Shown: positions 11,786-24,424, counted from the stretch's first letter. The stretch is DNA of 34,990 bases from a virus (IMGVR_UViG_3300008259_000020:1-34990), one strand, 5' to 3'. A program made the numbers and translations. Notes: generated from the letters alone by a model not told the origin.

Positions 11786-12511
11786 TTACTTTTTAACGTG
11801 TTCGGGTTTACCTTTGTGCTTGGTTTTAGCATAGTCTTTTGCGTCTGCTTTGCTCATGCCTTTAGCAGCCTTTGCTACTTCTTTACTAGCAGGCTTTTCG
11901 CCCGATTTTGCAGCGTAAACCATGCCCATAAACTTTTGTTGTGCTTTTGACTTGGCTTTTTCCAGCAACGACTTGTATGCTGTTGCTTCTGATTCTTTCA
12001 TTTTTAAAGTTTTTGATTCAGCAGTAATAGGACTCATTACTTTTTCATCATACTCTAGTGCATGATATACACTGCCGATATAGTCTGCTGCTTTGGTAAT
12101 CTTGCTTTGCTGCCAACCTTCGAGGCCTTCTGCTTCACTGATGTTTTTTAGCAATTCGTGTAGTTTAATTGCATACTTTGCAATTTTATAAAGTTCAGCA
12201 CGAGCCATTTGTACTTCGTGATCTTGTTCTGCTGCACCAGCAAGTTCAGCAAGACCTTCAATTAGTTTAGATTCTGCCATAGCAGGCTGTCCGGCCTTGT
12301 TTGCTCTTGCTACAAGACCCTTGATAATTTCTGGAGACATTCCAGTTTTTTGTGAAAGTTCTGCCATGTTCTTAGCACCAAACGGTGTGCCAAAGTTTTC
12401 CAAATGATCTGCTAGTCTTGCCATTGCGTTAGCAATCATATCGTTTGGTTCTTTTACTGCTAGTTGTTGCAGTTTACGGCCTAGTGCAGCATACTTCATA
12501 TTTGGTTCCAT
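11786..12511 (-). CDS. putative internal head polyprotein (modular, basic C-terminal module)
   Basis: Modules separated by MAE|S, ISE|A, TAE|S and MKE|S. Lys/Ala-rich tail AKSKAQQKFMGMV...TKHKGKP. A late-type promoter lies upstream. Confidence 0.55.
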   Translation of the reverse strand: MEPNMKYAALGRKLQQLAVKEPNDMIANAMARLADHLENFGTPFGAKNMAELSQKTGMSPEIIKGLVARANKAGQPAMAESKLIEGLAELAGAAEQDHEVQMARAELYKIAKYAIKLHELLKNISEAEGLEGWQQSKITKAADYIGSVYHALEYDEKVMSPITAESKTLKMKESEATAYKSLLEKAKSKAQQKFMGMVYAAKSGEKPASKEVAKAAKGMSKADAKDYAKTKHKGKPEHVKK

Positions 12512-12534
12512 TGGTATCTCCGAGATCTTTTATA

Positions 12535-12542
12535 TATTTATC
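12535..12542 (-). promoter_or_regulatory. T4-late-like promoter GATAAATA
   Basis: One mismatch to T4 TATAAATA. Overlaps the upstream stop codon and precedes a GGAG SD. Confidence 0.55.
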
Positions 12543-13374
12543 GTTTAATTGTTTTACCGCCGAACAAACTTACATCTTTCATATCCAATGCGTTGTCAGT
12601 TGGCTTTTGCATTTTTACTTTTGTTTTACTGTTTGCAACAGTTGCTACACCGCCTGCACTAGTACCGCCTGCTGTAGCAGTTTCGGCAATTTCTTCAGTA
12701 AATTTCTTAGTAATTTTAATATCGTCACGTCCAAAGGCAGTTACAAATGCTTGGAATTCTTTTGGACCCATAACAAATTCGTTTGCGTTTGGTTTAAAGT
12801 ATTGCATCACACGATCGTTTCTACGTAGTGTGCTCATTAGTCTCGGACTGGTAACTGTAAAGTGTCTTGTAATCTTCTTTGCTGCTGGTTCAACTCGTGC
12901 GTCGGCACTACCCCATGATCCATCTGATCCTTTTTTCTTACCTTTTACAGTAATCTTATTGTCAACTTTGTCAGACTTTTCTTTTTCTTTATATTCTACT
13001 TTTACTTTACCATTACTGGCTTTTTCAATCTGTCCAAGAAATTCGCCAAAATACGAAAATCTGTTAGCCAGTCCTGGAGCATCGATGGATATTGTTACAC
13101 CACGTGCTGCTGTAAATGTTTTGTCGGCAAGCATTTTTTTAATTGCATTAACCAAATCTTCCTTGCTTTTAAGATTGTAAAACTTCCATTTAGCATCGGC
13201 AAATTTTAAATCTGCTGCACTTGGAACAAAACCTGCATAACCTACCAAGTATGGGTTGTCATCACCACCACCTGCTGCGGCAATTGGCTTCTTAATGCCA
13301 AATCTCATAAAGATATTGCCGGCTGTTTTTTCTTTTTCTACTCTGTCTAGTTCTACAATCTGATTAACTTGCAT
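12538..13374 (-). CDS. putative internal head protein (N-terminal MQVNQIVE tag)
   Basis: 278 aa. The N-terminal tag matches the cluster consensus, and the C-terminal module follows IAE|TATAGG. Confidence 0.6.
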   Translation of the reverse strand: MQVNQIVELDRVEKEKTAGNIFMRFGIKKPIAAAGGGDDNPYLVGYAGFVPSAADLKFADAKWKFYNLKSKEDLVNAIKKMLADKTFTAARGVTISIDAPGLANRFSYFGEFLGQIEKASNGKVKVEYKEKEKSDKVDNKITVKGKKKGSDGSWGSADARVEPAAKKITRHFTVTSPRLMSTLRRNDRVMQYFKPNANEFVMGPKEFQAFVTAFGRDDIKITKKFTEEIAETATAGGTSAGGVATVANSKTKVKMQKPTDNALDMKDVSLFGGKTIKR

Positions 13375-13376
13375 TG

Positions 13377-13544
13377 TTATCCACCTACTAATTTACCGCG
13401 CAATGGGTGTTTTTGTGTTGGTCCCATAGTGGGATGTACTTTTTTAGGCATAGGATCGGATCCTTTTGCTTGGTCTGGTTTTTTCTTTTCGCGACCAACA
13501 TCTACATTAAGTAAAGCAGTTTCTGTTATTTCAAAAACTTTCAT
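13377..13544 (-). CDS. small tagged protein MKVFEITE... (55 aa)
   Basis: Missed by the ORF track. Translates as MKVFEITETALLNVDVGREKKKPDQAKGSDPMPKKVHPTMGPTQKHPLRGKLVGG, has an AAGGA SD and an ATGA-type overlap upstream. Confidence 0.7.
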   Translation of the reverse strand: MKVFEITETALLNVDVGREKKKPDQAKGSDPMPKKVHPTMGPTQKHPLRGKLVGG

Positions 13545-13732
13545 TTTGCTTTCCTTAGACCTGCAATTTTTGCATTGATACCGTACTGTGCTAGTATTTG
13601 TTGTTTTGCTTCTTGAACATTACGTGCAGATACTTGAACAGGGATCCATTGACTATAGAACTTCTGTTGCACTTGTACGTTTGCAACAAAAATGGAAAAC
13701 ACCTGTGTATCTTTTAATTCACGTATTAGCAT
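13541..13732 (-). CDS. small hypothetical protein MLIRELKD... (63 aa)
   Basis: True start taken as M39 of the ORF-track call, 5 nt after AATAAATA. Confidence 0.6.
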   Translation of the reverse strand: MLIRELKDTQVFSIFVANVQVQQKFYSQWIPVQVSARNVQEAKQQILAQYGINAKIAGLRKAK

Positions 13733-13733
13733 A

Positions 13734-15680
13734 TTAATATTTATTCCAATCAAACGGTTTACGTTTTTTAGGAATTTCTTCAACTGCATGACCGCCCTGC
13801 ATTGCTGCCCATTCACGTAAACTATATTTAGGCTCAACGGATTCATTTGGGTTACTAGTCCAAAATGCCTTCCCTTGACTAGTTTGACTGGTACTAGGTT
13901 TAATATCGTTGCCCATACTTTTCACAAATTTGTACATTGCAGTAGCTATTCCGTTGCGTTGATATTCATCATTAACACGCAAATTGCCGGCTACCAAATA
14001 TGGATCAGCCTTTTTAAATCGTTTAAACAAACCAGAAGGTTCATCGTTTCCTATAACGATAAATCTCACATATCCAATAGACTTATTATCTATAAATGCT
14101 TCAACTTTTATTTGCGGAATCATATTACTAGGATAATGATTTGCAACTATTTTTACTTTGCCTATCTTAGTATCAACTACAGTTTCTTTATGAAAGTCTT
14201 TGTTTAATAATTCAGGATTTATGCTTTCAAAAAGTCCTATGTTAAACAAAACATTTGTGTTAGATTCATTTAGTTTAAAGAACGGACCTTGGATGATACT
14301 TTTGCTTTTTTCTTTTACTAATCCTCTATTGAGATTTTTCTTAAATTCATCTGTGATGTGTCTATTTCGCAGTCCTTGACTAAAGAACAAGTGCGTTTCT
14401 ACAGGATTGTTCCCGAACACCTTTGCTATTGCTGCCATGCGATTTCTGCCTTCATGCCCTACTACTCTAGCAGGCATAGAAAAATCACCATTTTCCCACG
14501 ATTCTGGTATTTCTATTCTAAGGAAAGGACTGCCGATAGTGCCGCCTTGTTCGAGATGTTGGGCTATTTTTTCAGAAGGTTCACCGTCTAATGGTGCTGC
14601 TAGATCTATAAAATGCTTAGGAGTCATAGTCACACGCAAACCTAAATAATCGACTTCTTGGTTGTTAGGAACAGCACCCCATCCATTTTTATTGTCAATT
14701 ATATCTACATTGGTATTGACACCTTTTACAATACGATCGTCTTCTTTAAAAAACTCATTTTCTCTTATTGTAAGACGACCTTGCTTTGTTAAAAATTCTT
14801 GATATTTTGGATCAGAGTGTTTCATTACAAAATTTATAGAACTATCTTTGTTAAAATCGTTGAACGTATAAAAATTGGTACTTGGCCCAATAAACTGATA
14901 TTCGTCGAAAGTTTTGTGATAAATTACAGAATCAATTCTTCTAAAAAATAATCCTCGGCCGTATCTAGATTGAGAAAATTTGTCAACTACGTAATATCGT
15001 TTTTCTATTTTAACAATATCGTTTATTTCAATATCTTCTCGCCAGTTTTCTGTATTTTCTTTGACTTGTTTCTTACTCTTGCTGTCTTCATAAACTGGAT
15101 TGTTATTGTTTAACTTTGATTCTTTATAGTACGGATTTTTTGGATCAGTGTCTCCGGTAACATCTGGCCACCAATCTAACTCGAAACGTTTTCCATCAGC
15201 AAACATCTTCTTCATTGACTTGATGCGCTTTTCATATTCGGCTTTCGAAGGTTTAACATTGTTTTCAACAACGTCAAGCACATATTGTATAGTAACTGCA
15301 TTGGCACTTAAACTTGCACATCTTGCACCCACTTCACCTTTTAGATGATCTATTAAAATACTTTCGCTGCTTTTTGCCAAGTCGTCGGAAAGATCATGCG
15401 GTACTCTCAAGTCAACATAGGAATAAACATAATCGTAGTGTGGTAGTGGTGACGAGTGTAGAATGTATTCGTCCAACACTTCGATTCTTTTAAATCCGTC
15501 TTTGTTATACCAAATTGCTCGTTTATGTGTTAATTCATCTGGATTTTTAAAAAACTTTACCAGTTGTTTTACATATCCGGCAGGTTCGTCATTTTTCCAT
15601 TGAGATAAAACATTTAAAGATTCAGCAACTTTTTTTCCACGCTTATCGTTTACTTCAAACAGATCTTGTATTTTCATCAT
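13734..15680 (-). CDS. polyvalent putative virion protein: unknown domain + ParB/Srx-like domain + GNAT acetyltransferase
   Basis: MKIQDLFE tag. HEGRNR in a ParB-like context. V-NDEYQRNGIATAMY matches GNAT motif A. Domains are bounded by xxE|[SN] sites. Confidence 0.65.
   Translation of the reverse strand: MMKIQDLFEVNDKRGKKVAESLNVLSQWKNDEPAGYVKQLVKFFKNPDELTHKRAIWYNKDGFKRIEVLDEYILHSSPLPHYDYVYSYVDLRVPHDLSDDLAKSSESILIDHLKGEVGARCASLSANAVTIQYVLDVVENNVKPSKAEYEKRIKSMKKMFADGKRFELDWWPDVTGDTDPKNPYYKESKLNNNNPVYEDSKSKKQVKENTENWREDIEINDIVKIEKRYYVVDKFSQSRYGRGLFFRRIDSVIYHKTFDEYQFIGPSTNFYTFNDFNKDSSINFVMKHSDPKYQEFLTKQGRLTIRENEFFKEDDRIVKGVNTNVDIIDNKNGWGAVPNNQEVDYLGLRVTMTPKHFIDLAAPLDGEPSEKIAQHLEQGGTIGSPFLRIEIPESWENGDFSMPARVVGHEGRNRMAAIAKVFGNNPVETHLFFSQGLRNRHITDEFKKNLNRGLVKEKSKSIIQGPFFKLNESNTNVLFNIGLFESINPELLNKDFHKETVVDTKIGKVKIVANHYPSNMIPQIKVEAFIDNKSIGYVRFIVIGNDEPSGLFKRFKKADPYLVAGNLRVNDEYQRNGIATAMYKFVKSMGNDIKPSTSQTSQGKAFWTSNPNESVEPKYSLREWAAMQGGHAVEEIPKKRKPFDWNKY
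13738..13745 (-). promoter_or_regulatory. T4-late-like promoter AATAAATA
   Basis: Encoded by the last codons (N-K-Y) of the upstream gene. 5 nt upstream of ATG with no SD. Confidence 0.5.
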
Positions 15681-16063
15681 ACACCATACTTGTTGCGTTT
15701 TGGTTTGGCAACTGGACTGTTTTTATTTGTACTGTCCATTTCTTTACTTTTTGTATCGCCGTTGTTTAAATCTTTATAATTTAAACCAATTACTTTATAA
15801 CTTTGTTTAAGCATTTCGGCTTCGACTTCTGTGTACGGGTGTGCAGTTTTTTTCTTGCCTATCCAACTCATTGAATCCATATCTGGCGGAGTTTTTCCAT
15901 CAGAACTTGCAAGGGCCATCATCAATCTGTACTGTCCGTAGTCACTACCAAATGTTCCTAAATTCGGACCATCATCATATGTATGCAAACCTGCGGTTGA
16001 CTCTTGTTCTCGTTTTGATAGTTTACTTCCGGCGGCTTCACTGATTATATCATGTATTTTCAT
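15677..16063 (-). CDS. tagged hypothetical protein, paralog of 16065..16472
   Basis: MKIHDIISE tag, QYR...YT-E-E core and a KPKRNKYGV end. Confidence 0.7.
   Translation of the reverse strand: MKIHDIISEAAGSKLSKREQESTAGLHTYDDGPNLGTFGSDYGQYRLMMALASSDGKTPPDMDSMSWIGKKKTAHPYTEVEAEMLKQSYKVIGLNYKDLNNGDTKSKEMDSTNKNSPVAKPKRNKYGV
15687..15706. repeat. 20-nt direct repeat, copy 1 (tacttgttgcgttttggttt)
   Basis: Identical to 16075..16094. Encodes KPKRNKY at the end of both paralogs. Confidence 0.8.
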
Positions 16064-16064
16064 G

Positions 16065-16472
16065 TTAAACTCCGTACTTGTTGCGTTTTGGTTTTGAAAC
16101 CGGGCTTGACTTATTTACGTCCGTGGTTTCTGTGCTTTTACTACTGGTGATTTGCACTGGTGTAACACCCATCAATCTTGAGGCCAAAGTAACAATTTCT
16201 TCTTCTTCTTTGGTGTACGCAACCTGTGTTAAATTTTCTGCATATTCAGATTCTTGCTCAAAGTCGTCATTGGTTAAATGACCATCTGCCATTGCTTTTG
16301 CGGCTGCAACTGCAACACCGTATCTGTACTGCATGTAAGGATCTGTATTTCTAAGTTGCTTTTGTATAAAGGTAGCAGGCATAGGATCTGTAATTCTAGC
16401 AGGAAGTTTTCTAGACTTGCCAGTAAGTTTTGGTTCGCGCTGTTGTTCGTTAATAATGTCTCTAATTTTCAT
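16065..16472 (-). CDS. tagged hypothetical protein, paralog of 15677..16063
   Basis: MKIRDIINE tag, QYR...YT-EEE core and a KPKRNKYGV end. Confidence 0.7.
   Translation of the reverse strand: MKIRDIINEQQREPKLTGKSRKLPARITDPMPATFIQKQLRNTDPYMQYRYGVAVAAAKAMADGHLTNDDFEQESEYAENLTQVAYTKEEEEIVTLASRLMGVTPVQITSSKSTETTDVNKSSPVSKPKRNKYGV
16075..16094. repeat. 20-nt direct repeat, copy 2
   Basis: Identical to 15687..15706. Confidence 0.8.
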
Positions 16473-16693
16473 TTTTTCTTACGCCCTCTAAAACCCGGCT
16501 TTGTATTTAGCGCACCTGTCATGTGTGGAAGATTAAACCATAATTCAAACCATTCTTTATCACCAGGCTTGATATTTTTTTCTCGTTCTATACGACGTTT
16601 TTCTGTTCCGGTTACAGAGATGTTTTCGTTGTAAGGAGTATATCCTTTAAACTCATTTATGCCTGCAAGACGTTTTAGATCATCGATATTCAT
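16469..16693 (-). CDS. small tagged protein (MNIDDLKRLAGINE...)
   Basis: 74 aa with INE|F and YNE|N sites and a basic C-terminus. Confidence 0.65.
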   Translation of the reverse strand: MNIDDLKRLAGINEFKGYTPYNENISVTGTEKRRIEREKNIKPGDKEWFELWFNLPHMTGALNTKPGFRGRKKK

Positions 16694-17495
16694 TTTTACC
16701 TTCTTGCTCTTTTTCTTTCCACCAATTTAAAAAATTCATTGTTGGATTGCTTAGATACCAAGCAACATCTTTATATGTTTTAAATCTTGCTTGTAGCAAT
16801 TCTTGTTTAATTTTTCCGTATTCTGGGTCACGCATTGCTCTTCTATCAGATGGTAAATTAATAAGTTCTTTTGATTTTTTACCGGCATACTTGCTTAAAA
16901 ATTCTTGTAGGTTCAGCATATAGTAGAATGGTGTATCTACTATTACTTCGCCGTCCCATTCGCTTTGACTAGGAATACCTTGCTTATAACCTGCTAAGGC
17001 ACGGTTAACTTCTTCACTAGCATCATAGTCTGTTGGCCGCGATAAAGTCGTTCGCGCACCGCCTCCTAGATCTTTTGGTTTATATTTGTCATTGTAGCCT
17101 TCAAAACTTCCTAAGTCTAGTATCTCTGGGTTCCAATATGCTTTAAATTTACCACCCGGTATCATAATAAAGTTTGTGCCATGAAATCCTGATATATTAT
17201 CGGGTGTAGTAACCAACGCTTGTGTAGGGTGTTGTACACCTAAACCGTTGAAGATTTTTTGTTGAAAGAAGCTACTATTGCCTTTTACACCTTTGCGTTC
17301 TCCGCCTTCGTTATTAACTTTTATCATAAGATTTGTAGCGCCTCTGCTTCGAGATTCACCGCCCTCAAACATTCTATATAATATAGGAGTATTGCCTAGT
17401 TTATTACACATTTCAGCAGCAACTTTTACACGCTCAATAGCGTGATCTGTATCGTTAATAAATGTAACTTTTTCAGTAATCTCATTTACTTTCAT
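16680..17495 (-). CDS. tagged protein, possible ADP-ribosyltransferase-like fold
   Basis: MKVNEITE tag. ILYR early strand, GTNFIMIPGGKFKAYWNPEILDL and a late DGEVIV strand are consistent with an R-x-E type ART core. Weak. Confidence 0.4.
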   Translation of the reverse strand: MKVNEITEKVTFINDTDHAIERVKVAAEMCNKLGNTPILYRMFEGGESRSRGATNLMIKVNNEGGERKGVKGNSSFFQQKIFNGLGVQHPTQALVTTPDNISGFHGTNFIMIPGGKFKAYWNPEILDLGSFEGYNDKYKPKDLGGGARTTLSRPTDYDASEEVNRALAGYKQGIPSQSEWDGEVIVDTPFYYMLNLQEFLSKYAGKKSKELINLPSDRRAMRDPEYGKIKQELLQARFKTYKDVAWYLSNPTMNFLNWWKEKEQEGKNEYR

Positions 17496-18952
17496 TTCTT
17501 TTTAGCTCTTCCTGATTTCATATTGGCACACCAGTGGTACATCTTTCCACGTTCGCCGCCAGAATTCTTTGCACGTTTGCGTAATGCTGTTACACTGCCA
17601 CTGCAACTAGCACCGGCACGTTTTACTCTACCAGGACGGCTTTTGCCTTTTATTTTACCATCTGCAAAGTTTTCGTTATATGCTTTGTCGGCGGCTGCTT
17701 TTGCACTTGCACCATCTGGGTGGCGTGGATTAATACTAACAACATCACCATTCATAAGGTCGCTTACACTAGCACTCTTTCCTACTTTGTCCAACAGTTG
17801 ATGCAGTTTATCATTTGGGTCGTAGCCATTGGTTTCATATCCCATTTTGCCACGTACTTCTGTTCTTTTGCCTGTGTTTTTATCTAAAATATGCAATATT
17901 AACATATTGGCACGTTTGTCACGTTCCAGTTGTAACAAATAATTTTTGCTATCAGCAACATTTTCGTTTATATCTACGTCGGCACTTTTAAAAAATTCTG
18001 GATATTTTTTGTTGAACATTCGCATAATGATGCCGGCTTTTGTGTGTGCTTGGTTTTCTTCGGAACTACCAGTTTTGCCGCTGTCTTGATTTAGATCACC
18101 ATCTAGCGATTGTTTAAAATGTACAAGTTCGTGTGCAAACGTTCTTAGTATGTCAATAGGATGACGATCCTTAATACCTAGATATATAGCACGGTCATCG
18201 TTTACAAAACGTCCAAACGATGGATAGTCTTGATGATCTAGGTACGGTTCTAGTTTAATTTCGGGTAACTTATTGAGATCCAACACTTTTACAGCAATTG
18301 GAAGAAACTTCTCAACAGCCGACATTAAATCATTTTTTTTTAGATCCAATGACTGATTTTCACTAACGGACTGGCTGATCCCCATTGCACTGCGAACAGC
18401 ATCATACATCTGTTGAGCAAGTTTAGGATTTGGTACACCTTGTGTAAATGAATCAAAGTCGCCTGTTGCTGCTGCCGCTCGCATTTTACTAGCACTCATG
18501 CCTTCTGCACCATCGGCGTCAGGATCTCTTTCGCCAGCACTTACAACTGTAATGCTATCAAACTGAAATGGTACTTTTCCGCTCTTGTCTGGTTTTCCAT
18601 TGTAGGTGTCGAACAGTTTCTGAAAACCATCTACTCTGTCGCTGCCTGCAACAAACACAACATCAGTGTAACCTAAACTTTGAATATATTCTAGTGCAAC
18701 AACAGGTGTGTTAATGCCCTCACGACCGATTTCTATACCAGGAAAGAATGCCTTAGCAAACTTTAATTTTGTACCAAAGTCAAGTGGATCTTTTTTTTTA
18801 TCTTGACTGTGACTTAAAAAAAGAAAATGATCGCCGGGTATGCTTTTGATTTTATCAACTAATTTAGCATGACCGATAGTTGGAGGATTCATTCTGCCAA
18901 ATGCGAGAACTGCAACTTTACTACTTTGTTCAAACAGTTCTCTCAGTAGCAT
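17492..18952 (-). CDS. polyvalent putative virion protein: HIGH-family nucleotidyltransferase + HExxH metallopeptidase-like domain + two further modules
   Basis: MLLRELFE tag. FGRMNPPTIGH (HIGH-like), GSDR and MSASKMR (KMSKS-like), then RTFAHELVHFKQ. Junctions at VSE|N, INE|N and YNE|N. Confidence 0.7.
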   Translation of the reverse strand: MLLRELFEQSSKVAVLAFGRMNPPTIGHAKLVDKIKSIPGDHFLFLSHSQDKKKDPLDFGTKLKFAKAFFPGIEIGREGINTPVVALEYIQSLGYTDVVFVAGSDRVDGFQKLFDTYNGKPDKSGKVPFQFDSITVVSAGERDPDADGAEGMSASKMRAAAATGDFDSFTQGVPNPKLAQQMYDAVRSAMGISQSVSENQSLDLKKNDLMSAVEKFLPIAVKVLDLNKLPEIKLEPYLDHQDYPSFGRFVNDDRAIYLGIKDRHPIDILRTFAHELVHFKQSLDGDLNQDSGKTGSSEENQAHTKAGIIMRMFNKKYPEFFKSADVDINENVADSKNYLLQLERDKRANMLILHILDKNTGKRTEVRGKMGYETNGYDPNDKLHQLLDKVGKSASVSDLMNGDVVSINPRHPDGASAKAAADKAYNENFADGKIKGKSRPGRVKRAGASCSGSVTALRKRAKNSGGERGKMYHWCANMKSGRAKKK

Positions 18953-19287
18953 TAGTATTCTCCTTTTTTAAAGTTCTCAACTTCTGCTTCTAAAATTCTA
19001 TTGATAATTTCAATTTTATCGTTATCGGCCAACAAGTCTTCCGGACGCTTTTTAATATTAAACTTTTTAACATACTTTTTAACAGCCGCATCAATAATCG
19101 GGATCATTTCTTTCTTAGAAAACTTACCACCGTTCTTAACTGCTTCTTGTACATTTAACATCATAGGATACATATGTCTTCTATAAAATGCAGGATCGTT
19201 ACGCATAAAGACCATAAGGTCTTCGACCAAATCCCACGGAAGATTTTCGTTCATATCCATATTTGAAAAATCTGTTACTTTTACCAT
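18952..19287 (-). CDS. hypothetical protein
   Basis: 111 aa overlapping both neighbours, with MNE|N near the N-terminus. Confidence 0.65.
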   Translation of the reverse strand: MVKVTDFSNMDMNENLPWDLVEDLMVFMRNDPAFYRRHMYPMMLNVQEAVKNGGKFSKKEMIPIIDAAVKKYVKKFNIKKRPEDLLADNDKIEIINRILEAEVENFKKGEY

Positions 19288-19844
19288 TTTCTACACGACC
19301 AATATCTTGCTTTTGTTCTAGGACCTGGGTTATCACAATTGTGTCTTGCTCTAAAACTACGACGACGAGCAGGATTTGATTTTTTAATTTTCATATTCGG
19401 ATCGCCAAAGTTTACCTTTTTAATATTTCCTGTACCTGGGTTCTTAACATAAACCTTGAACTTTTTAACATCGCCACGCATGGGCTTGCCAAGCGGTACT
19501 TTACGTCCTTGATATTCTGCTTCATCTAGTACATCATCTTCGTTGAACCACATAACACCGTAGGCTTCGTAAAAGTCGTCGCCATCGTATGTTTCTTCTT
19601 CAACTACGTCACCTTCGGTTGAGATCTCAATATCAAAGTCTTCGAATCCCTGTTCAAACATATAATTTGCTAAACGATTAGCATATTCGTCTGATTCTTC
19701 TTCACTCAATTGTCGAGGCAACGGTATTTCGTAAACAGTAGTATCCTGACTGCTTTCATAAATTTCGTGACTGGGGAAAATACTTTCATCTAACTTTTTA
19801 GATGTTTGTTGCTTTTCCATAATTATTCTTACAAAATGTTCCAT
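19281..19844 (-). CDS. putative internal head protein: acidic module plus basic C-terminal module (…RRRSFRARHNC…ARYWSCRKW)
   Basis: Sharp acidic-to-basic switch at LDE|AEYQG. GAGG SD. Confidence 0.6.
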   Translation of the reverse strand: MEHFVRIIMEKQQTSKKLDESIFPSHEIYESSQDTTVYEIPLPRQLSEEESDEYANRLANYMFEQGFEDFDIEISTEGDVVEEETYDGDDFYEAYGVMWFNEDDVLDEAEYQGRKVPLGKPMRGDVKKFKVYVKNPGTGNIKKVNFGDPNMKIKKSNPARRRSFRARHNCDNPGPRTKARYWSCRKW

Positions 19845-19851
19845 GTTTACC

Positions 19852-20199
19852 TCAGTGATTTAGTGTGATGCTGTTTATACTACCTTGAGTCCAAGAAGCA
19901 GTTGCTCGTACCCAAACATAATTTCCTATAAAATTCTTAATAGTTGTACTGGTTGTTGACCCAACCGCAGTGTATTCTGTAGTGGGTACTGTAAACCAGT
20001 CTGTTTCTACAGGTGATACTGCTAGTGTTGCTTGCATCTTAACAGTACCTATAAACCCTGCTACTGAATATTGAACAGTATGGTAACCATCTGTTTTACC
20101 GTAATAGCCGTCGGCCTTGTATTGTTCGCCGGTAACAGACTTGGTACCTGTACCGGAATATGCTTGATTTGATAAAATTGTTTCACTTGTAGACGACAT
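19852..20199 (-). CDS. Ser/Thr/Gly-rich beta protein, probable virion structural protein
   Basis: Composition typical of structural proteins. Start moved to ATG 20199, 5 nt after GATAAATA. Confidence 0.55.
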   Translation of the reverse strand: MSSTSETILSNQAYSGTGTKSVTGEQYKADGYYGKTDGYHTVQYSVAGFIGTVKMQATLAVSPVETDWFTVPTTEYTAVGSTTSTTIKNFIGNYVWVRATASWTQGSINSITLNH

Positions 20200-20203
20200 A
20201 TAA

Positions 20204-20914
20204 CTATTTATCAATGTTTGCTTTATAGATTAACTTATCTATTCTGGTGATATTATCACCAACAATCATTTGCACCAGCATTACTACATGTTCATTACGT
20301 ACATACATGTAAGTTCCTTGAATCCAGCGATATTCGTTTTCGTGATGATCTAATGCAACTTTGCCAATTGAAACATTTTTAGAATTTTTCTTAATCCAGT
20401 CGGCTAATATCTTACTGCCCGGTTTCTTTCCAAATGTCAATTTCCAAGGAAACTTTGGTTCTTGATTTACTAAGATAACATTTTGATTGTTGGTTAGAAA
20501 GTCAATTGCTGACTCAGAAGGTTCCCATATTTCGACGTTAACAGAAAGTTTTGATGATACTTTTTTTAATAAGTCGTGGTCGTTTGTGTAAATTATAAGT
20601 GTACGACTTTCACAACGAATCATATATTCGCCGGCATTTTTTAAACACTTGTATATGTGATAGGCTTCATCAACTTCGTGTGAATGTATAACTGTGGCTT
20701 TAGAAAATCTATTTCTAAGAGTTAAAATTTCATTGGATTTATTACGCTGAACAAATTCTTTTAAACGTTGTTCAGCGTAAGACAATTTACCATTACGTTG
20801 TAAATCTGTACGGAAAATACTTGTAAGTGTATTTGTAGTTTTTAACTTATACAAATATTTCCCGTAATGCAATCGCTTTGCTTCATGCAGTTTCAGATTG
20901 CTCATGTGTTTCAA
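20204..20914 (-). CDS. hypothetical protein
   Basis: 236 aa ORF (the start may be M4). No motif recognised. Confidence 0.65.
   Translation of the reverse strand: MKHMSNLKLHEAKRLHYGKYLYKLKTTNTLTSIFRTDLQRNGKLSYAEQRLKEFVQRNKSNEILTLRNRFSKATVIHSHEVDEAYHIYKCLKNAGEYMIRCESRTLIIYTNDHDLLKKVSSKLSVNVEIWEPSESAIDFLTNNQNVILVNQEPKFPWKLTFGKKPGSKILADWIKKNSKNVSIGKVALDHHENEYRWIQGTYMYVRNEHVVMLVQMIVGDNITRIDKLIYKANIDK
20205..20212 (-). promoter_or_regulatory. T4-late-like promoter GATAAATA
   Basis: Overlaps the upstream TAG stop. 5 nt before ATG with no SD. Confidence 0.55.
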
Positions 20915-23132
20915 CTACTAATTTAATCTCGTTATCATTGATATCGATATGTACTTCGCCGCCATCTTTTAGGCTTCCAAACAACATAAGCCTTGAAAGA
21001 GGACGTTTAATATCTTTGTCAATCACACGTTGTAGCGGTCTTGCACCCATTTTAGGATCAAAGCCTTTGTCAACCAAGTAATCCAGTGCTTCGTCACTAA
21101 CCGTAATTTTAACATTCTTGTCTTTGACTTGATCCATGAGTTCTTTCAAGAACTTTCCTACAATTTTCATCATAACAGGCTTGCTAAGTTTTGAGAATGT
21201 AATTACACCATCGAGACGATTTCTAAATTCCGGACTGAAGTACTTCTTTAGTTCGCCGTCTTCGTAATCTCTGTCAAGACTTTGACTAAAACCAATAGTA
21301 TTTTTCTCTGCTTCTTTAGCACCAAGGTTAGTGGTTAGGATAAGAACGCAGTTACGAGCATCTGCTTCTTTGCCGTTGGACCCTGTGATTTTACCATTGT
21401 CCATCAACTGTAGAAGCACTGCACTAACATCAGGATGTGCTTTTTCAATTTCGTCTAGCAACAGTACACAGTTAGGATTCTCTTGTAGTTTGATGATGAG
21501 TTGTCCTGCATCATCTTCAAATCCAACGTAGCCCGGAGGTGCACCGATAAACTTTGCAATACTGTGCTTTTCTTGGTATTCACTCATATCAAAACGAATT
21601 AGTTTAACACCAAGGTGATGTGCAAGTTGTTTTGCTGTTTCAGTTTTACCAGTACCTGTTGGCCCCATAAACACAAACGAACCGATTGGTTTGTTTTCAG
21701 GTTTAAGTCCTGCTTGAGCAACAAGAATTTTGTCAACAATACTTTCAATTGCACTGTCTTGACCATAAACACTTGATTTTAGATTTGTTTCTAGATTGAC
21801 AAGATTTTCTGTTTCGCGTTCGGCAATTTGATCTTCGGGAATCTTTACAAGTTTAGCAAGTTCGTACTGAATATTTTCAGCAGTTACAACCTTGTTGTCA
21901 ACTTGATCCAGCACTTTGAATCTGCTACATGCAACGTCAATGAGATCGATTGCTTTATCAGGAAGTTTTTTATCTGCTTGATACTTGACTGAAAGTTTAA
22001 CAGCGGCTTCGATTGCATCATCAGTGATTACTACACTATGATAATCCTCATAGTACTTGCGAATACCATCAAGAATTTTAACAGACATTTCTGGTGTAGG
22101 TTCATCAACATTTACACGCTGGAAACGACGCATAAGTGCGCGATCTTTTTCAAAATACTTGCGATACTCTTCCCAAGTAGTGCTTGCAACAACCTTAACG
22201 TTGCCTTTTGATAGGGCAGGTTTGAGCATGTTTGCAAGATCGTTAGCACTGTTTCCACTGCCAGCGCCTGCACCACTGATCATGTGTGCTTCATCAATAA
22301 ACATAATGGTCTTGCCCTTTGTTTGTAGGGCTTGAAGAACAAGTTTAAAGCGTTCTTCAAAGTCGCCGCGGTACTTACTGCCGGCAAGCATACTACCAAT
22401 GTCCAGTGCATAAACATTATAGTCTTGTAAAAACTTTGGTACTTGTTTGTTAACAATTTTCCAAGCAAGACCTTCTGCAATTGCAGTTTTACCTACACCA
22501 GGATCGCCAACCATTAGTACGTTTGACTTGGTTCTACGTCCAAGTGCAAGAGCAACTTGTTCTACTTCTTCTTCACGTCCAATAACAGGATCAATCTTGT
22601 TTTTCTTTACTTCGCTGTTCAAGTCTGTGGTAAAGGAACGAAGTGCCTTGTTAGCAACGCCTTGATTTTCCTGTTGTTCTTCTTCGTCAACCATGCTATC
22701 AAATTCAGTACTCATGTAAGTAACAAATTTGTCTTTTGAGATACCGGCTTGTTGTGTTACAAAGTATGCATACGAACGTTTTTCGTTTAGAATACTAACA
22801 AATACGTCACCAACGTCAATGTTATTACGTCCATTAAACAATACCTGTGTAAATGCTCTATTCAATACACGTTCAACAGTTTGTGTCTTTTTAGGCTTGT
22901 ACCTTGTGCCTTCGATCTTAATCTCATCTAGTTTTGTCTTGAGATAGTTTTCAAGATTCTTTTTCATTAGTTCAGGGTCGGCACCAAACCCAATAATAAC
23001 TTTTTCAAAGTGTTCTTCACACAGTATTGCATACAAAAGATGCTCAAGTGTAATGTACTCATGCTGTAGTTTTTTAGCATCGTTCATTGCTTTGTCAAAA
23101 ACAACTTGTAGTACTTGGCTAGGTTCAACCAT
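20883..23132 (-). CDS. clpA: ATP-dependent Clp protease ATP-binding subunit ClpA
   Basis: Clp N-domain and two AAA+ modules (GDPGVGKT, GPTGTGKT, FIDEAH, LLDEIEK). No ClpB middle domain. IGF loop (TIGFS) and GARPL are present. Confidence 0.93.
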   Translation of the reverse strand: MVEPSQVLQVVFDKAMNDAKKLQHEYITLEHLLYAILCEEHFEKVIIGFGADPELMKKNLENYLKTKLDEIKIEGTRYKPKKTQTVERVLNRAFTQVLFNGRNNIDVGDVFVSILNEKRSYAYFVTQQAGISKDKFVTYMSTEFDSMVDEEEQQENQGVANKALRSFTTDLNSEVKKNKIDPVIGREEEVEQVALALGRRTKSNVLMVGDPGVGKTAIAEGLAWKIVNKQVPKFLQDYNVYALDIGSMLAGSKYRGDFEERFKLVLQALQTKGKTIMFIDEAHMISGAGAGSGNSANDLANMLKPALSKGNVKVVASTTWEEYRKYFEKDRALMRRFQRVNVDEPTPEMSVKILDGIRKYYEDYHSVVITDDAIEAAVKLSVKYQADKKLPDKAIDLIDVACSRFKVLDQVDNKVVTAENIQYELAKLVKIPEDQIAERETENLVNLETNLKSSVYGQDSAIESIVDKILVAQAGLKPENKPIGSFVFMGPTGTGKTETAKQLAHHLGVKLIRFDMSEYQEKHSIAKFIGAPPGYVGFEDDAGQLIIKLQENPNCVLLLDEIEKAHPDVSAVLLQLMDNGKITGSNGKEADARNCVLILTTNLGAKEAEKNTIGFSQSLDRDYEDGELKKYFSPEFRNRLDGVITFSKLSKPVMMKIVGKFLKELMDQVKDKNVKITVSDEALDYLVDKGFDPKMGARPLQRVIDKDIKRPLSRLMLFGSLKDGGEVHIDINDNEIKLVVETHEQSETA

Positions 23133-23643
23133 TTTTAATCCTTTTGATTCTGCGCTTTTCGGCCATTTTATATTTTAGTTTACTAACTCTGTCGATGTAC
23201 TGAATACCATGTAAATGATCGTATTCATGTAAGAATATACGTGCATCTATATCATCAAACTTTGTTTCTACATGTATAACATTTTTAAAGTCACTTGTCA
23301 AGGTATCAAATTCAACAATGCAACTAATTGGACGTTTTACTTTTAAAAACAGCCCAGGATGACTTAAACAGCCTTCGGGTCCTTCTTCAGTTTCTTTGCT
23401 TAATCCTTTAATAACAGGATTCATCACAACAGTTATCTCACCGTATTGTCTATTTAACACAGGTTTCATAACAAAAATCTGATACGGTACTCCTACTTGA
23501 TTAGCACTTAACCCTAGACCGCCTTCTTTAACCACAAGGTCGATCATATCTAATGCAATCGGTGCAGGATGCAGTTGATTAAACGGCCAAGTTTGCGTTG
23601 GCGTTTCTAGCATAACATTAGGTGCTAGTATTAATTGCATCAT
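23125..23643 (-). CDS. def: peptide deformylase
   Basis: [15 protein letters not shown] and HEYDHLHG (PDF motifs I-III). Confidence 0.93.
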
Positions 23644-24424
23644 TTATAACTTTTATCCTTTCGATTATGATATCGTCTGATATCTTTGGAACAAAACCTT
23701 TTACTGTTAGATAAAGATGGCCAGTTATTCCTTTAGCAGGGTCTATTAAACCGTATCCTGCAATAGAAAAAACAGTTCCAGGTTGAGTTCCTTTAGGTAT
23801 TTTAACATTTATTTCGTTGCCAGTCAATGACTTAATAACAACGCTTGTTCCTAAAATAAGATCAAAAACACTAACTTCTTTTGTGCATTTTAGATTCTTA
23901 CCATCTCTTTCAAACACTGAATGTTTCTTTACTCTAACAAGAACAATTAAATCACCTCTAGGTATTGAAGCGATACTGTTGTCGCCTAGACCTTTAAAAC
24001 GTATGGCTTCGCCGTCTTGTATACCAGCATGTATTTTAATTGTAGCAATAGTACTTTGTCCATTAAACAAATTGTAATTTGCAATTAAATCTTTGCCAGT
24101 AACTACTTCTTCTAAGTCTAGCGTAATTGCTATTTTAATATCTCGATTTTTTCTAACATTAGGATATCCACGCATAGTTCCAAAGAATGCATTTAATATG
24201 TCATCCATGTTTGTTGAATTGAAGTTGTATTCCTGTTTAGGTTGATCATACTCTGCACGTTTTGTAGTATCTTTTAACGTTTCGTATGCTTCGTTTATTT
24301 CAGCAAAACGTATGGTATCACCACCCCTGTCAGGATGGTGTTCCATTGCTAATTTTCTATATGCTTTTTTTATTTCATCTTGTGTAGCAGTTTTTGAAAC
24401 ACCAAGTACTTTATAATAATCCAT
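23618..24424 (-). CDS. DnaJ-class co-chaperone without zinc finger (CbpA-like)
   Basis: J-domain DYYKVLGV...HHPD plus the C-terminal DnaJ domain ([15 protein letters not shown]). No CxxCxGxG repeats. Confidence 0.9.

Follow-up and report, generated by a model that had tools for sequence, protein, structure and literature searches.

A block of genes with an N-terminal tag like the T4 capsid-targeting sequence in an uncultured jumbo phage, probably a variable locus of internal head proteins

The window analysed here comprises the first 34,990 bases of the 111,225-base IMG/VR viral contig IMGVR_UViG_3300008259_000020, and nearly all of its genes lie on the minus strand. Between positions 11,786 and 19,844, about a dozen adjacent minus-strand genes begin with a short peptide (the tag) resembling the capsid-loading peptide of phage T4. 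Adjacent genes of this block either overlap or stand apart by just a few bases, and the block is flanked by the genes of a ClpA/B-like ATPase and a DNA polymerase (Table 1). Because the tag is like the peptide by which T4 loads its head, the mostly uncharacterised proteins that carry it are probably packed in the virus particle.

The contig belongs to an uncultured, T4-related marine jumbo phage. CheckV rates the contig as 31% complete, which corresponds to a genome of ~350 kb. The window DNA polymerase shares 43-50% identity with the polymerases of cultured jumbo myoviruses (Sinorhizobium phage Phosso, Agrobacterium phage Atu_ph07, Vibrio phage 2.275.O and the E. coli 121Q/PBECO4 group) and 77-92% with those of many uncultured contigs. 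Two of the latter, G001 (330 kb, 93% complete) and G002 (357 kb, 100% complete), were analysed as full sequences; in near-complete relatives the polymerase is 81-92% identical. A nucleotide search of the tagged block against cultured phages gave no match, and the gene content of the locus varies even among close relatives.

Table 1. Genes of the tagged block and its surroundings, in window coordinates. A slash marks a candidate cleavage position; starts given for tags are translated gene starts; aa, amino acids; pI, isoelectric point; ORF, open reading frame.
Product	Coordinates	Strand	Protein start	Further features
DNA polymerase, 888 aa	7908-10574
241-aa protein	11786-12511	minus		84-residue extension ahead of 'GLAELAG..DHEVQMAR' module; internal K-L-I-E/G; C-terminal DUF3008 (Pfam E = 5.6e-7)
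278-aa basic protein, pI 9.75	12538-13374	minus	MQVNQIVE (start 13374)	~220-aa cargo; internal E-I-A-E/T; basic tail module A
55-aa basic protein, pI 9.9	13377-13544	minus	MKVFEITE (start 13544)	tail module D
63-aa basic protein	13541-13732	minus	MLIRELKD (start 13732; internal ATG of ORF 13541-13846, 1 base past the upstream gene's stop; orthologues start there)	family keeps M-L-[IL]-R-E, i.e. [IL]-x-E at residues 3-5
647-aa multi-domain protein	13734-15677	minus	MKIQDLFE (start 15677)	uncharacterised domain; F-K-E-D before RIVKGVN domain; GNAT-like region; tail module C
128-aa protein	15677-16063	minus	MKIHDIISE/A (start 16063)	tail module E (..SPVAKPKRNKYGV); paralogue of 16065-16472 gene
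135-aa protein	16065-16472	minus	MKIRDIINE/Q (start 16472)	tail module E; paralogue of 15677-16063 gene
74-aa basic protein, pI 9.85	16469-16693	minus	longer leader MNIDDLKRLAGINE/F	I-N-E at residues 12-14
271-aa protein	16680-17495	minus	MKVNEITE (start 17495)	alpha/beta domain; member of a widespread family
486-aa protein	17492-18952	minus	MLLRELFE (start 18952)	HIGH-motif nucleotidyltransferase; HExxH (AHELVH) region; further region; Y-N-E/NFADG; tail module B (..HWCANMKSGRAKKK)
111-aa protein	18952-19287	minus	MVKVTDFSNMDMNE	M-N-E at residues 12-14; family start M-V-K-I-x-E/F, I-x-E at residues 4-6 (orthologue N-termini)
187-aa acidic protein	19281-19844	minus	MEHFVRIIME/K	basic Cys-containing C-terminus; relatives MKNFISIIWE, MEHFIRVIME
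120-aa protein	19852-20214	minus	untagged	inside block; weak PHROG 'virion structural protein' match (phrog_14467, E = 2.5e-5)
about 233-236-aa protein	20204-20905	minus	ATG at 20905	family keeps M..K-L-[HF]-E/T-K-K-L-H-Y-G
ClpA/B-type double-AAA+ ATPase (749 aa), peptide deformylase (172 aa), DnaJ (268 aa)	20883-24424	minus		directly upstream of tagged block

Distribution and conservation of the tag

A preliminary description of this DNA had quoted eight similar N-termini, and all eight are the translated starts of consecutive minus-strand genes. The two further proteins said to reach INE or MNE by residue 14 correspond to the 74-aa and 111-aa products. When the regular expression M[KLQRM][IVL]x[DEQ][ILV]x(1,2)E was run over the six frames of the whole contig, it gave seven matches, all at ORF starts within 13374-18952. 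Counted by gene, on a simple gene set of the contig, it was present in 7/9 cluster genes vs 0/165 others (Fisher p = 4e-11). The enrichment that the preliminary description had proposed to look for is thus borne out, and the same scan agreed with its statement that no replication, metabolism or lysis gene of the window has the tag. With a motif chosen beforehand from what is published on T4, namely [L/I]-x-E among residues 1-10, nine of the 12 genes of 11786-19844 were positive as compared to 18 of 165 elsewhere (p = 2e-6). The flanking genes, encoding a 198-aa protein and the Clp ATPase, lack tag-like leaders. The cluster proteins are basic, with a median pI of 9.0 vs 6.0 for the remaining genes (p = 0.001).

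The codons of the tag differ between genes and the DNA upstream of the tags is unrelated, so the tag is conserved as a peptide and not as DNA. This bears on the idea that the likeness is left over from duplicated or recombined genes, or serves translation initiation, and that the peptide itself does nothing. Two clear paralogues and several genes with common C-terminal modules would suit such an origin, as would the frequency of MK starts and A-rich second codons in efficiently translated genes. It is opposed by the lack of DNA conservation in the tags and their upstream regions, by the presence of the tag at the head of unrelated folds, where it is kept down to about 20% identity, and by equivalent sites inside fused proteins, at junctions where initiation of translation plays no part. 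We consider this explanation hardly credible.

Conservation was assessed in homologues gathered in 82 related loci by similarity past residue 15, whose N-termini were inspected afterwards. [LI]xE fell within 10 residues in 48 of 53 distinct homologue N-termini, compared to a background rate of about 10-11% of other genes, and hydrophobic-x-E in all 53. The homologue consensus reads M1, K/R2, I/L/V3, x4, E/D5, L/I6, x7, E8 (M-[KR]-[ILV]-x-[ED]-[LI]-x-E); the tag is usually 8-9 residues long and holds one or two overlapping [hydrophobic]-x-Glu sites. In total, 86 ORFs of the related loci are tagged, and 56 different tags occur among them. When the tag is left out, these ORFs and the eight of the window form 23 BLAST groups, with 48 to 907 aa of cargo behind the tag; among relatives it is found on at least 23 unrelated families. 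The claim that the tagged proteins are otherwise unrelated holds for these groups and is to be softened for the two paralogues and for the proteins sharing C-terminal modules.

Family-specific leaders also occur on genes beyond the quoted eight, namely in the 111-aa, 187-aa and DUF3008 families. Of the 17 different N-termini among 30 orthologue matches to the 74-aa protein, most keep its longer leader, and the window's copy of the 111-aa protein is degenerate at the family leader (MVKVTDF). The start of the 187-aa protein matches T4 MKTYQEFIAE at four positions, namely 4 (aromatic), 7 (hydrophobic), 8 (Ile) and 10 (Glu). An L-x-E leader is present in 5/7 relatives of the 20204-20905 protein, whose gene is a possible further member of the block. 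In G001, tag-like N-termini also lie away from the main locus (G001:244834-250446 and G001:302593-306413), among them MLLRELFDQ (91 aa), MKFNELIKE (68 aa) and MKINEITQ (243 aa), and an off-locus protein of 1019 aa begins MRLRNLFE.

Tail modules and fusion junctions

At their other end, the tagged proteins close with a few recurrent, mostly basic C-terminal modules. Module A (..NALDM..SLFGGKxxKR) terminates the window's 278-aa protein (..SLFGGKTIKR) and occurs as a stand-alone tagged gene of 55-60 aa in relatives. Module B (..NFADGK...HWCANMKSGRKKK) ends the 486-aa protein, module C (..EWAAxQGGH..FDWNKY) the 647-aa protein (EWAAMQGGH) and module D (..HPLRGKLVGG) the 55-aa protein; a further form reads ..KPKRNKYGV. 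Between tag and tail module there may be no residue at all or as many as several hundred, and the modules are stand-alone tagged genes in some relatives and fused behind other domains in others. For example, a 150-aa protein of G001 combines the tag MKIEDLFE with a C-terminal ..FDWNKY, so that both of its ends are those of the window's 647-aa protein.

Where modules are joined, cleavage-like sites are kept. Glu precedes NFADG in 23/23 contexts, the start of tail A in 7/7, and GLxxLA in 23/24 (13/13 stand-alone and 10/11 fused). At the fused junctions taken together, Glu occupies P1 in 34/35 and a hydrophobic residue occupies P3 in 27/35, vs an expected fraction of 0.33 (binomial p = 9e-8). The window contributes four such junctions (Table 1): in the 241-aa protein, the internal site stands at the place of the relatives' N-terminal tag M-x-x-K-I-K-E/G (GLADLA), and the RIVKGVN domain of the 647-aa protein lies directly behind the tag in relatives. 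With hydrophobic-x-Glu kept from junction to junction, the prohead protease would release several pieces in the head, which suggests that the larger members are polyproteins processed there. The junctions thereby provide a set of candidate cleavage sites.

Relation to the phage head

In T4, L/I-X-E is the sequence after which the prohead protease gp21 cleaves, and residues 1-10 of the internal protein IPIII are enough for packaging (PMC9026906). Within this capsid-targeting sequence (CTS), positions 4 and 7 contribute to targeting and positions 8 and 10 to processing, and a CTS with Asp at residue 10 is targeted but uncut (PMC9026906). T4 IPII and IPIII both translate to MKTYQEFIAE/A, in agreement with the preliminary description, which had cited this peptide and its gp21 cut. 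The internal proteins of T4 are basic, and those of T-even phages are diverse, with the CTS as their sole common part (PMC3012670; for the CTS also PMC9026906). The block resembles the T4 IPI/IPII/IPIII system in that otherwise unrelated, mostly basic proteins begin with a short peptide whose last residues are [L/I]-x-Glu, and in that the locus is variable and lies outside the head-gene module; a gp21-family protease is encoded by relatives. The determinants at residues 4 and 7 fit in the 187-aa protein and in distant relatives of the 271-aa protein; the common 8-mer has a different register.

The protease and its setting were found in the relatives. G001, G002 and G003, whose DNA polymerases are 77-92% identical to that of the window, each encode a Peptidase_S77 protein (T4 gp21 type) above the Pfam cut-off, located in a T4-like head module whose protease, scaffold-like and major capsid proteins have [LI]xE near their N-termini. 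The head module of G001, with the protease gene at G001:139582-140208, follows a T4-like order of portal, two small genes, protease, scaffold-like protein and major capsid protein. In G001, [LI]xE occurs within 10 residues in the protease (MMNYLRE), in the scaffold-like protein (MDILRALLE) and in the capsid protein (MSELLE...ALLE/G). The head modules of G001 and G002 also include a tagged gene each (MKISSIIAE and MKISDITNE). In the cultured Vibrio phage 2.275.O, an 80-aa gene between portal and protease begins MKLVELFE, the position occupied in T4 by the core proteins gp67/gp68. An exact T4 late-promoter motif, TATAAATA, lies at G001:131010-131046, 36 bases upstream of the tagged gene of that head module.

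An indirect tie to virions comes from a homologue of the 486-aa protein. Its nucleotidyltransferase domain matches the S-SM1 'cytitidyltransferase' T4-GC190 (33% identity, E = 2e-41), which was detected by mass spectrometry in purified S-SM1 virions (Sullivan et al. 2010, PMC3037559). The cyanophage homologues begin MKKFSAFLNE/A (S-SM1), MKKFNAFLIE/A (P-RSM4) and MKNFHQFITE/A (S-SRM01). The two proteins thus share a homologous domain, a CTS-like N-terminal tag and a location among replication genes; the window protein differs from T4-GC190 in that its tag is the short MLLRELFE and that an HExxH region and basic tail module B are added. In P-RSM4 and S-SRM01, the cyanophage core family T4-GC198, encoded near a cytidylyltransferase gene, has the likewise tag-like start MKFDELNE or MRFDELNE (L005:9754-10116 for P-RSM4; L006:10328-10699 for S-SRM01).

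The best explanation of the block 11786-19844, which may reach as far as 20905, is that it encodes internal head proteins in a variable ('hyperplastic') locus, and we assign a probability of roughly 0.7 to the reading that its tag is a T4-type capsid-targeting peptide that doubles as a prohead-protease propeptide. By analogy with the T4 CTS, the tag would dock each protein on the scaffolding core as the prohead assembles. The gp21-family protease would then cut after the tag Glu, so that the acidic tag is lost and the mature, mostly basic protein remains among the packaged DNA. The very small basic cargo peptides are likely to be DNA-associated. As a further step drawn from T4, some cargo may accompany the DNA into the host and exert an effect in the cell.

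Several observations weigh against this reading. The window tag has 8-9 residues and not the 10 of the T4 CTS, most copies lack the aromatic residue 4, and in some members the expected Glu is replaced by Asp, Asn or Lys (MLIRELKD; MQLRELFN in G001). Neither a prohead protease nor gp23/capsid genes are present on the 111-kb contig, which covers ~31% of the genome, so the link to the protease is drawn from relatives, and presence in virions is known only for the S-SM1 homologue, a cyanophage protein. The T4-type late promoter TATAAATA is absent in and before the tagged block; scans of the block for sigma-70-like promoters and terminators gave chance level. The junction Glu could simply be the first residue of a conserved module. 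Finally, since most cargo has no recognisable function, an 'arsenal' of injected effectors is a picture borrowed from T4.

The most serious qualification accordingly concerns purpose and not mechanism. With the same tag mechanism, the tagged proteins could be parts of the prohead core, scaffold or DNA-condensing apparatus, similar to gp67, gp68 and the internal peptides, that serve assembly and charge neutralisation instead of acting as effectors; many of their fragments would then leave the head or be inert after injection. This would fit the many members that are very basic, low-complexity peptides of 55-75 aa, the same tag on head-module genes at the gp67/gp68 position, and the lack of an enzyme signature in most cargo. 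The high variability of the locus between close relatives, in which cargo is exchanged while tag and tail stay constant, is instead typical of arms-race genes, and some cargo is enzyme-like, including the nucleotidyltransferase with its HExxH region and the GNAT-like region. On balance, we regard a purely structural role as unlikely. A leader for another enzyme, with no capsid signal in it, was also considered, the candidates being a radical-SAM maturase, the ClpA/B-like unfoldase, the deformylase and DnaJ. The last three are encoded directly upstream, the relatives carry 13-16 radical-SAM genes each, and one related locus, L004, contains a radical-SAM-like gene, recognised by a CxxxCxxC motif only. 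Still, no radical-SAM gene lies in window positions 11786-20914 or in the G001 locus, those of G001 being >30 kb away, and nothing links the Clp ATPase, the deformylase or DnaJ to the tag. The tag instead matches the known gp21 site, which is also present in capsid, scaffold and protease proteins of this lineage itself, and one homologue is a virion protein; such a leader is thus very improbable.

The preliminary description had called the tag a portable address label for loading diverse effectors into the head. Its loading part gains from the relatives' Peptidase_S77, the sites in head proteins, the MKLVELFE gene of the cultured Vibrio phage 2.275.O and the virion homologue in S-SM1 with its T4-like 10-mer tag; its effector part stays conjectural, most cargo having no recognisable function. 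A modular 'plug-in' version goes further: the minimal gene would consist of tag and small basic tail peptide, cargo would be inserted or fused between them, every junction would be cut by the protease, and the resulting free enzymes and DNA-bound peptides would be delivered to the host. We put this version forward tentatively, with the odds somewhat against it.

Other systems offer partial parallels. In T4, gp21 cuts Alt at both ends and divides the core proteins into several fragments (PMC9026906). As head-packaged, gp21-processed proteins, Alt, gp67 and gp68 parallel the polyprotein-like junctions and possible C-terminal processing in the window, whose proteins differ in showing no sequence similarity to them. 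In phiKZ, 201phi2-1 and SPN3US, the propeptides of many ejection (inner-body) proteins are cut after Glu by a diverged gp21-like protease, with redundant sites (PMC9026906). Those proteins belong to an unrelated lineage and have S/A-x-E sites and long propeptides, not a portable tag of 8-10 residues. Compared to T4 itself, the block differs in its tandem [ILV]-x-[ED]-[LI]-x-E layout, in joining about a dozen genes in one operon-like block, in its recurrent basic C-terminal modules and cleavage-like sites at fusions, and in belonging to a marine ~350-kb jumbo lineage, described here from sequence.

The principle has long been known from T4, and the value of the present case lies in its extension and modular detail and not in a new concept. 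What appears to be new is that the tag is short and tandem, that basic tail modules are conserved and that fusions keep cleavage-like sites. If the tag acts as in T4, the capsid-carried proteins of a large uncultured marine phage could be predicted from sequence alone, and the predicted set would include a nucleotidyltransferase-metallopeptidase-like fusion and a widespread domain with no match among solved structures. If the plug-in version is true as well, the injected proteome of uncultured jumbo phages would become readable in the same way. The site-keeping fusion junctions suggest a route by which packaged cargo could be assembled and diversified.

Cargo domains and neighbouring genes

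Among the cargo, enzyme-like features comprise the nucleotidyltransferase with its HExxH region and the GNAT-like region, next to which stands the conserved alpha/beta domain of the 271-aa protein. The 486-aa protein matches the cytidyltransferase family phrog_3041 with E = 3.9e-54. The GNAT-like region of the 647-aa protein is a weak, sub-threshold Pfam match; Pfam searches with sub-domains returned this and non-significant metallopeptidase hints, and nothing else. Residues 328-469 of the same protein share 43% identity with a protein of a Ralstonia jumbo phage, tblastn against cultured phages gave just two partial matches, and it had no neighbours in the language-model atlas. PDB sequence searches with the 486-aa and 647-aa proteins found no match. 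The 278-aa protein matched nothing in Pfam or PHROG, and the 241-aa protein had PHROG matches to uncharacterised families.

For the 271-aa protein, a profile search returned 118 relatives at E <= 0.001, among them distant members with T4-like tags (MKTFSEFLSE, MKFKEFITE and MIKLIDILKE). In an alignment of 96 sequences, D127 is invariant and E8 (the tag Glu), R41, G106, P113, Y170, E183, Y191 and Y241 are conserved at >= 90%, so that the tag Glu is conserved on par with the domain residues R41, G106, D127 and E183. Structure prediction with AlphaFold2 gave an unusable model with 19 close homologues (predicted local distance difference test, pLDDT, 44). The model used was obtained with the 96 sequences (pLDDT 92.1, predicted template-modelling score 0.90); its fold begins at residue 9 and leaves the first eight residues outside. 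Foldseek of this model against the PDB found nothing at E <= 0.001, a wide VIA-align search had a best Z of 3.8 to helices only, AFDB clusters yielded unnamed proteins only, and tblastn of the protein against cultured phages gave no match. The domain may represent a previously undescribed fold that many phage lineages carry behind capsid tags. An assignment as an Alt-like ADP-ribosyltransferase, prompted by language-model atlas neighbours (0.81-0.83), was not supported, since the PDB and AFDB fold searches were uninformative. One distant family member has a weak Pfam match to IPI_T4 (E = 0.006), probably via its CTS-like N-terminus.

The radical-SAM (PF04055) genes of the relatives are packed into one region each (G001:47000-89000; G002:167000-190000), and the gene in the related locus, L004:15297-16145 (CNLSCANC), directly follows an 846-aa tagged gene. 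The contig of the window has a single radical-SAM gene, at C1:35308-35799, just beyond the window end.

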